A stretch of 64,000 nucleotides of DNA. It comes from Bacteroidota bacterium. GTDB lineage: Bacteria; Bacteroidota; Bacteroidia; UKL13-3. The notes below the pieces were generated by a model. It was given only the letters and a program-made list of their open reading frames with translations, was not told where the DNA came from and searched no databases. Positions within the stretch are counted from its first letter, which is position 1; every line of letters starts with the position of its first letter. Below, one piece after another: positions 16,013 through 58,355 of the stretch. Where the stretch lies: the NCBI GenBank assembly GCA_040387195.1, contig JAZKEF010000011.1, positions 172,077 through 236,076 of the forward strand, read 5' to 3'. The position numbers were made by a program, and so were the translations under genes.

Positions 16013-16036
16013 CGAAGTGACTACATGACCACTTCG
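16013..16036. terminator. Hairpin between the convergent pepT and fic genes. It overlaps the fic stop codon.
   Basis: cgaagtg-N10-cacttcg forms a 7-bp perfect stem. No strong U-tract on either side. Confidence 0.3.
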
Positions 16037-17130
16037 TAAGAAGTGTTTCGTCCACCACCTTCTGTTTTACGCAGTACTTTTTTATGTACCAGATCCTGGA
16101 TATCACGAAGGGCTGTATCGGGTGATGATTTGGTGAGCTTAGCCCACTTGCTGCTGGTAAGGTTTCCCTCAAATGCATCCAGCAATTTATTGAGCATCTG
16201 TTGCTGACGGTTATTGAATACCGTGGTGGCATGTGTTTCCCAAAATTTGCCCTTTCGCAATACTCCGTCAAGGGTTTGATCAGTGGCCAGGAGTGCATCC
16301 ATCAGGCATTGCATGAACCATTGTAGCCATAATGTAACATTCATTTTTCCTTGCTGGGTGCGTTCCAGCATATCGTAGTATTGATTGCGTTGCAGGCGTA
16401 TTTGTGCGCTCATGCTGTAAAAACGCTGGGTACTTTCATCGGCACGTGCCAAAAGCATATCAGTAAGCGCTCTGGCTATACGGCCATTTCCATCTTCGAA
16501 AGGATGGAGCGTAACAAACCATAAATGCGCCAGCGCAGCTTTAAGTACCAGGTCAACATCGTGGTTGGTATTAAACCACTTTAAGAATGTTGCCATTTCT
16601 TCGTTGAGCATTACTGCCGGAGGTGCTTCAAAATGTACCCGCTCTTTGCCCAACGCACCCGATATTACCTGCATCGGACCGGTTTCATCTTTGCGGTATT
16701 GACCGGTGCGCACGGTAAAGTTACCACTTTTACCCAGTGGAAATAAGTGCTTTTGCCATTCGCACAGGCGTTTTTTGGTGAGCGGTTTGTGGTATTGTTG
16801 TGTTGCATCCAGCATCATTTCAACCACACCATCTACGTTTCTATCCGAACGTACCATACCACCAATGTGAAGGCCAAGTTTACGGGCAAGTGATGATCGT
16901 ACCTGATCTGAATTTAAAAGTTCACCCTCTATCTCGCTGGTTTTCTGAATATCCAGTGTGAGTGTTTTGAGCAATGCTTCTTCACGCAACTTAAATCCCA
17001 TGGCTTGCATTTTACCCAGTATACGGCCTTGTTTATTACGGAGCTTTCCCAGCTCTACCTGTATTTCTTCGTTGCGCCAGGTAAAGTTGGGCCATTTGGG
17101 TTGTTGGTGTATGTATATTATTCTCCGCAT
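16021..17130 (-). CDS. Fic family protein with an N-terminal Fic_N domain carrying an inhibitory helix (class II), and a C-terminal winged-helix-like domain.
   Basis: Fic motif HPFEDGNGRIARAL. Inhibitory motif (S/T)xxxE(G/N) is present as TSEIEGE. Length 369 aa. Confidence 0.85.
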   Translation of the reverse strand: MRRIIYIHQQPKWPNFTWRNEEIQVELGKLRNKQGRILGKMQAMGFKLREEALLKTLTLDIQKTSEIEGELLNSDQVRSSLARKLGLHIGGMVRSDRNVDGVVEMMLDATQQYHKPLTKKRLCEWQKHLFPLGKSGNFTVRTGQYRKDETGPMQVISGALGKERVHFEAPPAVMLNEEMATFLKWFNTNHDVDLVLKAALAHLWFVTLHPFEDGNGRIARALTDMLLARADESTQRFYSMSAQIRLQRNQYYDMLERTQQGKMNVTLWLQWFMQCLMDALLATDQTLDGVLRKGKFWETHATTVFNNRQQQMLNKLLDAFEGNLTSSKWAKLTKSSPDTALRDIQDLVHKKVLRKTEGGGRNTSYEVVM

Positions 17131-17227
17131 ATCCTGCGGTAAATATACTCATATTCTCCGCATAAAAAAATTATTCTCCGCATTTTATGCGGTTAATATT
17201 GTTCGTATTCTCCGCATAAAATTGCGG
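17116..17227 (-). promoter_or_regulatory. Four direct repeats of (T)ATTCTCCGCAT on the + strand, i.e. ATGCGGAGAATA on the fic strand. Three of them lie inside CCGCAT-N3-5-(A)TGCGG palindromes. The proximal copy is the fic start codon plus its first three codons.
   Basis: Copies at about 17116-17130, 17151-17163, 17171-17183 and 17205-17217. Palindromes are ccgcatatcctgcgg, ccgcattttatgcgg and ccgcataaaattgcgg. Upstream copies create mini-ORFs MRRI*, MRRIIFLCGEYEYIYRRICGE* and MRRIRTILTA*. Confidence 0.6.
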
Positions 17228-17284
17228 GAAGCGGGTTGACCAACATGTTGAAATGTCTTATTTTGCACCCAATCAATTCATGTT

Positions 17285-17797
17285 ATGCGTAAAATTATTT
17301 TCTTAAGTATGGTATCTGTGTGGTGTGTTTGTTCGGTAAACGGGCAGGCTCTCAAAGCGTGGGTAGGTGAGTGGAAAGGTACACTCGAGCTGTATAAGCC
17401 CGATGGTTCGATAGACAGAACCGTACCTATGGATTTGCTGATAAAACCTACCGGTGATAGCTTGGCCTTGCAATGGCGTCTTACGTATAATAAGCAGGAT
17501 GTACGTGATTATATCCTTCGCACGGATGATGCAGGGGCCGGTAAATTTACGCTGGACGAAAAAAATGGAATAACCATTGATGTACGCAGGTTTGGCAATA
17601 TGCTTTTTAGCAGCTTTGATGTACAGGATTACCAGATCTCTGATAGTTATGAGATGCGGGGTGTAACCATGATCTTCACACTTACCAGTTCCAGTACCAA
17701 CCTGCATACCAAGAGCGGCAAAGGAACGGAAGAAAGCCCGAATGTAAAATCAATGCCGGTTAATGTGTTTCAACGAGCTATCCTGTTCAGGCAATAA
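17285..17797 (+). CDS. Hypothetical secreted protein, 170 aa.
   Basis: Signal peptide MRKIIFLSMVSVWCVCSVNG. No recognisable motif. Transcribed divergently from fic. Confidence 0.45.
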   Translation: MRKIIFLSMVSVWCVCSVNGQALKAWVGEWKGTLELYKPDGSIDRTVPMDLLIKPTGDSLALQWRLTYNKQDVRDYILRTDDAGAGKFTLDEKNGITIDVRRFGNMLFSSFDVQDYQISDSYEMRGVTMIFTLTSSSTNLHTKSGKGTEESPNVKSMPVNVFQRAILFRQ

Positions 17798-57224: not shown

Positions 57225-58355
57225 ATGTTGGAAGCAATAAGTATTAACGGATTTATGTTGGCGGGCGCATTGGTAGTTGTACTTCTGGTGCAGTTGTATT
57301 ACCATGTTGTTGTATTGGGAAAATTTGCTTTTCACAAGCAGCAGCCTTCCGCTAACCATAGGCAGGAGCCGGTATCCATCATCATTGCAGCACGCAATGA
57401 ATATGAAAACCTGCAAAAATATTTACCGGCCATTCTCAATCAGGACTATCCCGAATTTGAAGTAGTGGTTGTCAACCATTGCTCATGGGACAATAGCCAG
57501 CAATACCTCGAAGAACTCCAACTGCAATACAAACACCTGAAAGTATCGCAGCTTATTGAGCAGGAAAAATATCCTACCGGCAAAAAGTTTGCATTAACCA
57601 TTGGTATCAAAGCAGCCAAATACGATCAGCTGTTGTTTACAGATGCCGATTGTGAGCCTGCAAGCAATCAGTGGCTGGCATTGATGGCAGGTCGTTTTGA
57701 TAACAATGCCCAAATTGTATTGGGGTATTCTCCGTATTATAAAAAAGGAGGAATGCTTAATTTATACGACCGCTTTCAAACGGTTGTAACTGCTGTATTT
57801 TATTTTTCGTTTGCCCTTGCCGGAAATACCTTTATGGGAGTGGGCCGAAACCTTGCTTACCGCAAAGAGTTATTCTTCCGCCATAAAGGCTTTGCAAGCC
57901 ACCAGCACATCATGAGCGGTGATGATGATTTGTTTATCAACGAAGCTGCAACTCCACATAATGTGGCCATTGAATACAGTGCCGAAAGTTTTACCTGGTC
58001 GGATGCCAAGCCGAACTTTGAAGCATGGTCACGGCAAAAGTCCCGCCACATGACTACCGGCAAACATTATAAAACCAAACACAAACGTTCACTGGGTGTG
58101 TATTATGCAACCTTGTTTTTGTTTTACGGATTACTGGCGGCCACCTTGCTCGTAAGCATCGAAACCTGGCCTATTGTACTTGGTGCGTACGCATTGAGAT
58201 TGATCACACAGGTTATCGTGTATTACAACGCAACGGTAAAACTCAAGAATACATCACTCGTTTGGTCTATTCCGGTAAACGATTTTCTGTTTTGCCTGTT
58301 TATGCTATTCTACGGAACCAAAGGTTTTTTTACCCGCAATACGAAGAGCTGGTGA
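57225..58355 (+). CDS. Integral-membrane GT2 glycosyltransferase.
   Basis: N-terminal TM, GT-A core (IIIAARNEYENL, DAD in FTDADCEP), and C-terminal multi-TM region. Confidence 0.7.
   Translation: MLEAISINGFMLAGALVVVLLVQLYYHVVVLGKFAFHKQQPSANHRQEPVSIIIAARNEYENLQKYLPAILNQDYPEFEVVVVNHCSWDNSQQYLEELQLQYKHLKVSQLIEQEKYPTGKKFALTIGIKAAKYDQLLFTDADCEPASNQWLALMAGRFDNNAQIVLGYSPYYKKGGMLNLYDRFQTVVTAVFYFSFALAGNTFMGVGRNLAYRKELFFRHKGFASHQHIMSGDDDLFINEAATPHNVAIEYSAESFTWSDAKPNFEAWSRQKSRHMTTGKHYKTKHKRSLGVYYATLFLFYGLLAATLLVSIETWPIVLGAYALRLITQVIVYYNATVKLKNTSLVWSIPVNDFLFCLFMLFYGTKGFFTRNTKSW

Follow-up and report, generated by a model that had tools for sequence, protein, structure and literature searches.

The 64,000-nucleotide stretch of DNA analyzed here (the window; positions 172,077 to 236,076 of contig JAZKEF010000011.1, assembly GCA_040387195.1, from a Bacteroidota bacterium) carries on its minus strand a gene, fic, for a protein with a Fic domain. 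Immediately 5′ of this gene, and extending into its start codon, is an array of short forward and reverse repeats, which is the subject of this work (Table 1). A preliminary description of the sequence had counted four copies of TATTCTCCGCAT, including the one at the fic start, and three CCGCA/TGCGG palindromes, and these counts are exact and far above chance. The four copies are on the plus strand at 17119, 17152, 17172, and 17206, with no others in the window. When ≤2 mismatches are allowed, the window contains 15 matches, compared with 5.3 expected, and none of 100 shuffled sequences reaches 15. The pattern CCGCA-N3-8-TGCGG is found three times (17125-17139, 17178-17192, and 17212-17227), always at the fic leader, with 0.24 occurrences expected. 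Read in the fic sense, the gene-proximal copy is ATGCGGAGAATA, which is the fic ATG plus codons 2 to 4 (Met-Arg-Arg-Ile, MRRI). The ATGs of the three upstream copies open reading frames of 4, 21, and 10 codons, the lengths that had been given for them.

The preliminary description also listed three inverted TGCGG partners. These are present, but they had been understated, being the cores of full reverse half-sites (R5 and R2) and of a weak one (R0), so that the array in the window consists of four forward sites, two reverse sites, and one weak site. The six 11-nucleotide (nt) half-sites, of the TGCGGAGAATA type, are grouped as two forward-reverse-forward triplets, a distal one (R1 to R3) and a proximal one (R4 to R6), with start-to-start spacings from R1 to R6 of 18, 16, 20, 17, and 16 nt. 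In each triplet the central site could pair head to head with one neighbor (18 nt) or tail to tail with the other (16 nt). The half-sites of the two triplets are identical at 32 of 33 positions, and the spacers between them have no match. Within the 64-kb window, sites paired in the canonical geometry are limited to fic, and there is no second array. One isolated half-site with a single mismatch (TACGGAGAATA, 57726-57736, minus strand) has no partner in this geometry, and chance is its simplest reading. A plus-strand terminator-like hairpin reported by a pattern scan at 17178-17192 is the R3/R2 palindrome CCGCATTTTATGCGG followed by T-rich DNA, and no upstream plus-strand gene ends there.

The Fic protein matches Pfam PF13776 (DUF4172; 2.6e-31) and PF02661 (Fic; 1.5e-17), with a match to HTH_DeoR that falls below the cut-off (19.3 versus 21 bits). 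By far the nearest solved structure is PDB 8CIL, CbFic2 of Coxiella burnetii, which matches residues 6 to 367 with an E value of 1.1e-92 and 41% identity. The AlphaFold2 (AF2) model, which has a predicted local distance difference test score (pLDDT) of 91.5, gives a template modeling (TM) score of 0.90 to 8CIL in Foldseek. The C terminus of the model is a winged helix of three helices (residues 307-318, 326-333, and 337-349) and a two-strand wing (353-357 and 364-367), with pLDDT values of 80 to 94. The Fic motif, H209PFEDGNGRIAR220, is present, and its residues H209, P210, D213, G214, N215, G216, R217, and R220 are invariant among 36 homologues. N-terminal to it in the same chain is T64-S-E-I-E68-G69, which fits the class II inhibitory motif (S/T)xxxE(G/N) and of which I67, E68, and G69 are invariant in the same homologues. 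Based on its Fic and inhibitory motifs, the protein is a class II Fic (Fido) predicted AMP-transferase, and it belongs to the CbFic2-like DUF4172-Fic-winged-helix family; >7,800 protein clusters are related to CbFic2 at E ≤ 1e-60.

Table 1. The fic gene, its half-sites, and the candidate promoter elements in the window
Feature	Positions	Strand	Remarks
fic, 369 amino acids	16021..17130	-	Open reading frame; Pfam DUF4172 2.6e-31, Fic 1.5e-17; PDB 8CIL E 1.1e-92
Winged helix-turn-helix coding region, residues 307-367	16030..16212	-	AF2 secondary structure, translation checked
Recognition helix PDTALRDIQDLVH, residues 337-349	16084..16122	-	AF2 model; P337 (position 1) and L341 (position 5) covary with the half-site across the family
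Half-site R6, TGCGGAGAATA, forward relative to fic	17119..17129	-	With A17130 forms ATGCGGAGAATA, start codon plus codons 2-4; 68/81 loci
Half-site R5, TGCGGTAAATA, reverse relative to fic (TATTTACCGCA in fic orientation)	17135..17145	+	Center of proximal triplet, carries the putative promoter box; 76/81 loci
-7 motif match TATATTTA	17140..17147	-	TAnnTTTG at 7/8 bases; corresponds to -10 TATATT/TATAAT of other phyla
Half-site R4, TGCGGAGAATA, forward	17152..17162	-	Fills the spacer between -33/-35 and -7/-10; best conserved, 79/81 loci
T-run at the -33 (TTTG)/-35 (TTGnnn) place	17164..17170	-	TTTTTTT in the window, weak match
Half-site R3, TGCGGAGAATA, forward	17172..17182	-	Last site of distal triplet; 63/81 loci
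Half-site R2, TGCGGTTAATA, reverse relative to fic (TATTAACCGCA in fic orientation)	17188..17198	+	Center of distal triplet; 68/81 loci
Half-site R1, TGCGGAGAATA, forward	17206..17216	-	First site of distal triplet; 58/81 loci
Weak extra half-site R0, TGCGGGAAGCG, reverse	17223..17233	+	Match limited to the TGCGG core

The array is a property of the gene family rather than of this window. A scan of one genome per species yielded 80 loci with Fic proteins that are 56 to 89% identical, labeled as Bacteroidota, Alpha-, Gamma-, and Deltaproteobacteria, Acidobacteriota, Planctomycetota, Omnitrophota, Binatia, and others, and nearly all of them bear the same array immediately 5′ of fic. With the window added (81 loci), we scored occupancy on a fixed grid anchored at R4, allowing ≤2 mismatches in 8 fixed bases. 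Each of the six positions is occupied in 58 to 79 loci (Table 1), compared with 1 to 7 of 81 when the grid is shifted 300 nt upstream; all six sites are found in 48 of 81 loci and at least five in 64. Rigid spacing is seen within triplets, with 18 nt in 52/57 and 72/76 loci and 16 nt in 58/62 and 65/67, while the spacing between triplets floats from 18 to 22 nt, which gives a family pattern of 18/16/18-22/18/16. The same array is seen in a replication set of 80 independent metagenome loci, and in both sets together with the window six sites are present, by a looser criterion, in 104 of 161 loci. The preliminary description had proposed a check for the array at orthologous fic genes, with its absence counting against a function; it is clearly present in most of the 161 loci.

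Conservation is highest at R4 and R5, suggesting that this pair is the core of the operator. R6 ends in AATG in many loci, where translation may actually begin at the downstream ATG; the window offers no start other than the ATG at 17130. Since R6 overlaps the first codons, the operator variant dictates the N-terminal residues of Fic, which are MRRI with GCGGAGAATA or GCGTAGAATA and MQRM with GCAACGAATG; residues 1 to 6 are coil in the AF2 model. The number of triplets varies, with one in Coxiella (locus L081) and two in most loci. In loci L048 and L080 the count rises to seven or eight sites, as expected if there were a third unit farther from the gene, and in L045 there is one additional forward site. 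Two close relatives, L001 and L002, have a supplementary reverse site upstream, at another distance than R0. L001 (CALRRW020000053.1) is labeled as a Comamonas metagenome-assembled genome (MAG); its Fic is 89% identical to that of the window, and it is syntenic both with the window and with L002, a Chitinophaga-labeled MAG. This contig is probably mis-binned. The window most likely belongs to a Chitinophagaceae-like genome of the Bacteroidota.

The proximal triplet coincides with promoter consensus elements. R5 is the only site with a conserved flank, being extended to TATATT at 86 to 100% per base among the 81 loci, and it often departs from the half-site consensus toward the −7 motif. Nearly all of the 20 non-Bacteroidota loci, whose phyla use sigma-70-type promoters, have a TTGnnn hexamer exactly 17 nt upstream of the TATATT/TATAAT box, with R4 inside the spacer, and in these loci a Shine-Dalgarno-like GAGG or GGAG is often seen between R5 and R6. 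The window and the other Bacteroidota-like loci have TTTG ... TAnnTTTG at the same places (the consensus at the −33 place is ‘aatTTt’ versus ‘cTTG’ in other phyla), which we take to be the Bacteroidota −33 and −7 promoter motifs. A sigma-70 scan of the window found no match on the fic strand, as is expected for a Bacteroidota promoter, and the promoter argument therefore rests on the consensus across loci. From the position of these elements, transcription would start a few bases before R6 (in the window near 17131-17135, about 7 nt downstream of the TATATT place, for a predicted leader of ≤6 nt), and R1 to R4 are probably outside the fic mRNA, because the inferred −10/−7 box lies in R5.

In an all-against-all comparison of flanking open reading frames (ORFs) on either side and either strand, no neighbor gene is conserved, the largest family being present in 9 of 81 loci, and Fic itself is therefore the only constant candidate. 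The array in the window is in a divergent intergenic region beside a 170-amino-acid ORF (17285-17797, plus strand), for which the 80 related loci, including the two syntenic ones, contain no homologue. It has a signal-peptide-like N terminus and no Pfam match. It begins with ATGCGTAAAATT (17285-17296; Met-Arg-Lys-Ile), which resembles a half-site with 3 mismatches placed on its own start codon, as R6 is on that of fic; this likeness is probably due to chance, since the ORF lacks homologues in those loci.

The half-site differs among loci (GCGGAGAATA, GCGG(C/T)GAATA, GC(A/G)ACGAATA, and GCGT(A/C)GAATA), and the copies within one locus change together. The variant tracks the first residue of the recognition helix, which is X in K-C-S-X-D-T-A-L-R-D and P337 in the window. 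We compared this residue, read from an alignment, with the majority base at half-site position 5 in 148 loci that have at least three readable sites. Where X is His, base 5 is T (9/9 loci); where X is Lys, it is A (13/13 loci); and where X is P, Q, A, S, T, N, G, or R, it is G (123/126 loci). For His/T the Fisher test, uncorrected for phylogeny, gives 7.5e-13, and for Lys/A it gives 9e-18. Since all Lys loci belong to one clade, Lys/A counts as a single event. The His loci are not mutual nearest relatives; clustering at 75% identity yields 3 groups and at 80% yields 5, one of them including Gln and Pro loci as well, and 6 of the 9 are from the metagenome replication set. Positions 1 and 5 of a helix-turn-helix (HTH) recognition helix are typical base contacts, and position 5 covaries too: it is mostly L, the Lys clade has I or V, and the Coxiella protein has Y, the Y341 remarked on in PMC10628234. 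This covariation is the strongest evidence in this analysis that the Fic winged helix would be what reads the repeats. A group of Gln-type relatives near the His lineage, all from metagenomes (L086, L088, L089, L094, L095, L097, and L105), has arrays of mixed type, in which R3 and R5 are the main sites with T at base 5. These loci could be intermediates of a specificity switch, or Gln could tolerate both G and T.

The closest characterized protein is CbFic2 (CBU_0822), which binds DNA partly through its HTH; DNA induces its dimerization and stimulates its activity (PMC10628234). That study used random oligonucleotides, and its authors left open whether there is a specific target sequence (PMC10628234). 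The region upstream of the Coxiella fic gene reads aGAAGCGATTA-N6-TAATCGCTTCA-N5-cGAAGCAATTG, with a −10 TATAAT formed at R5, which is an R4-R5-R6 triplet built from another half-site (GAAGCGATTA). A relative with 77% identity has TAATCGCTTCA-N5-TGAAGCGATTA-N6-TAATCGCTTCA. CbFic2 is like the Fic of the window over its full length (E value, 1.1e-92; TM score, 0.90) and in the layout at its own gene, with TATAAT in R5. It differs in having one triplet, the half-site GAAGCGATTA, and R and Y in the helix where the window protein has P and L, and it has been studied as a host-directed effector, with no operator or autoregulation described (PMC10628234).

Two more distant Fic proteins are known to bind upstream of their own genes. 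CccR of Yersinia pseudotuberculosis (PDB 7XUX) is a dimeric repressor of its own promoter that acts through inverted repeats near −35/−10, as determined by footprinting, electrophoretic mobility shift assay, isothermal titration calorimetry, and reporter assays (PMC9755527). Like the Fic of the window, it is a class II Fic protein with a C-terminal HTH and with sites in its own promoter at −35/−10, and the repeated and inverted sites at fic, which overlap −35/−10 in the gene's own promoter, have the arrangement seen in CccR-type autorepressing Fic-HTH regulators. However, the similarity is limited to the Fic domain (E value, 8.4e-6; TM score, 0.44 to 0.49), and the window protein is not a CccR orthologue. 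The CccR operator consists of two 10-bp inverted repeats with 26 bp between them, in contrast to six 11-nt half-sites in 18/16-nt triplets, and CccR is a type VI secretion system effector (toxin) encoded in an effector locus, unlike the protein considered here. By analogy, the array in the window may work like the CccR operator.

The second protein, SoFic (SO_4266, mloA) of Shewanella oneidensis, is a dimeric winged-HTH Fic protein with specific binding to the 100 bp that precede its start codon (bioRxiv 10.64898/2026.07.09.737422). In the published upstream sequence (Table S2 in bioRxiv 10.64898/2026.07.09.737422), we find five copies of ATGTCGAT, forward at −107, −68, and −28 and reverse at −137 and −57; these sites are our reading and were not defined by the authors. 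Three of the five copies are within the best-binding fragment of SoFic. As in the window, there are repeats in both orientations upstream of the gene's own start codon, but SoFic is of another subfamily in which only the Fic domain matches (E value, 2e-7; TM score, ~0.6), its half-site is different, and its last site is clear of the start codon. Between −252 and −205 of the same sequence, in the distal fragment F3, copies of another repeat, TGTATAGATA, unrelated to the first, are found in forward orientation at −252 and −212 and in reverse at −237; they are possibly the operator of the divergent gene upstream of SoFic. A mechanism of self-regulation has been shown by experiment for the distant CccR and only suggested for SoFic. 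Type II toxin-antitoxin promoters are in general comparable as well, in that a potentially toxic enzyme is held low by operator palindromes over its own promoter. In contrast to those systems, there is no separate antitoxin or DNA-binding partner at fic, since no partner gene is conserved among the 81 loci, and the inhibitory helix, the enzyme, and the DNA-binding domain are in one polypeptide.

Based on the anatomy of the array, its conservation, its overlap with promoter consensus elements, and protein-DNA covariation, all obtained by computation, we consider it probable that the array is a self-operator that is bound by the winged helix of Fic and leads to autorepression; actual binding, its stoichiometry, and repression as the sign of regulation are what we infer, as is the transcription start. 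The C-terminal winged helix would read each half-site, with helix position 1 (P337) facing half-site base 5. The proximal triplet would lie over the core promoter, with R4 in the spacer between −35/−33 and −10/−7, R5 with the box, and R6 on the first transcribed bases and the start codon. Occupancy of R4 to R6 would exclude RNA polymerase, so that fic would keep its own product low, and the distal triplet most likely adds cooperativity. The preliminary description had proposed operator sites for transcriptional autoregulation through the Fic winged helix, and conservation, promoter overlap, covariation, and the precedents of CccR and SoFic all argue for that proposal. The principle is already known from CccR, and SoFic binds its own promoter. 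Self-operator binding is established for this kind of protein, and the array of the window would by analogy be the corresponding element of the CbFic2 branch. What is new, and undescribed in the literature that we searched, is the six-site architecture, its conservation across the family, a candidate cognate site for CbFic2, and the covariation of residue and base.

Several observations weigh against this interpretation. The −33 element of the window (TTTTTTT) is a poor match, and a simple symmetric dimer bound to one palindrome does not fit a triplet in which the central site is shared. CbFic2 had nanomolar affinity for random DNA, and an HTH deletion still bound DNA (PMC10628234), and therefore sequence specificity is unproven in the CbFic2 family. 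Furthermore, the Lys/A association represents a single clade, the Fisher tests are uncorrected for phylogeny, and the Gln locus L088 has T in four of its six sites.

The inverted repeats could also act in RNA, as a cis-acting leader in which alternative hairpins form, one of them hiding the start codon, and in which the upstream ATGs are decoys or upstream ORFs (uORFs) that control translation. The 136-nt leader does fold very stably, at −41.5 kcal/mol (z = −7.7 versus shuffles), and the short ORFs opened by the upstream ATGs are real. However, this stability, a check proposed in the preliminary description, is uninformative, as it follows trivially from inverted repeats alone. Adjacent inverted pairs (2.18 to 2.46 mismatches) are no more alike than nonadjacent direct pairs (1.98 to 2.18), and therefore there is no hairpin-specific compensation; likewise, the deviation of R5 toward the promoter box is uncompensated in R4 and R6. 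The idea of decoy start codons, also from the preliminary description, does not hold up across loci. An ATG is found in only ~40 to 45% of upstream copies, A preceding TGC in only 26/58 loci at R1, 28/63 at R3, and 31/79 at R4, and T is about as common. Since the reverse sites R2 and R5, which are unable to start ORFs on the fic strand, favor A/T in the same way, the preference belongs to the binding site. The promoter boxes, moreover, put R1 to R4 probably upstream of the transcription start. The best Rfam hit has an E value of 0.43, far below the gathering score. A cis-regulatory RNA or uORF attenuator was accordingly rejected as a candidate, there being no Rfam match, no excess similarity of hairpin partners, and no conserved ATG, and we regard an RNA leader as very unlikely. 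We are about as skeptical that the sites serve a different, host-encoded transcription factor. Binding of these sites by Fic is itself putative, and the array does share its divergent intergenic region with another gene, but no neighbor gene is conserved, and the 170-amino-acid ORF is without a homologue even in the closest loci. The array accompanies fic across phyla, its half-site covaries with the Fic recognition helix, and canonical paired sites occur in the 64-kb window only at fic.

Within the window, the array looks like two units of ~54 nt, with a 30-nt repeat at 87% identity and a 19-nt repeat at 95%, as would be left by a recent, functionless tandem duplication of a block that includes the gene start. 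There is next to no chance that this is the explanation. The two-triplet layout is found in most of the 161 loci and in many phyla, and identity between units is confined to the half-sites, being 0.79 at half-site positions and 0.34 in spacers (91 loci), which indicates that the likeness is maintained on the sites and does not come from recent duplication; cross-phylum conservation and the difference between sites and spacers refute this candidate. A proposal that is compatible with a self-operator is that the array is foremost a docking or allosteric site, where specific DNA drives dimerization and sets the AMPylase/deAMPylase state, with repression as a side effect. In CbFic2, DNA binding leads to dimerization, 20-bp DNA gives >22-fold stimulation of activity, and a deAMPylating dimer has been proposed (PMC10628234); the distal triplet, which has no promoter box, suggests a role beyond polymerase occlusion alone. 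Nevertheless, one array per chromosome holds only a few molecules, CbFic2 is activated by random DNA, and a repressor site would be expected to coincide with −35, −10, and the start codon, as this array does exactly; we consider docking as the foremost function unlikely.

A combination of the self-operator with such an allosteric role is conceivable, but we advance it as a doubtful extension. The array might be the physiological DNA ligand that sets the state of the enzyme. A single gene would then act as a self-titrating toxin/antidote switch and travel from phylum to phylum as one cassette. Through autorepression there would be about as many Fic molecules as half-sites, and almost every molecule would be bound to the operator as the DNA-induced, deAMPylating, harmless dimer; surplus Fic, or Fic that has left its sites, would be monomeric and AMPylating. 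The triplets would offer two mutually exclusive dimer registers, head to head at 18 nt and tail to tail at 16 nt, and the cassette would retune its own protein-DNA code in transit (P/Q-G, His-T, and Lys-A).

Fic enzymes with a DNA-binding tail are widespread, and the DNA specificity of the CbFic2 branch has been left open even though DNA controls dimerization and the balance of AMPylase and deAMPylase activities. The self-operator reading provides a candidate specific DNA target for a family of Fic enzymes for which none had previously been defined. This family-wide candidate includes the putative site of the Coxiella protein itself, GAAGCGATTA-N6-TAATCGCTTC-N6-GAAGCAATTG. It also provides a simple residue-to-base rule, one amino acid versus one base pair, by which the question of what DNA these enzymes read, and of its effect on them, becomes directly testable with oligonucleotides. 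If direct readout by helix position 1 is correct, P337H (or Q to H) would shift the preference at base 5 from G to T, and P337K together with L341I/V would shift it to the GCAACGAATA type. The fic genes and their arrays would then be a clean natural case of a regulator and its operator coevolving while being transferred as a single-gene unit.

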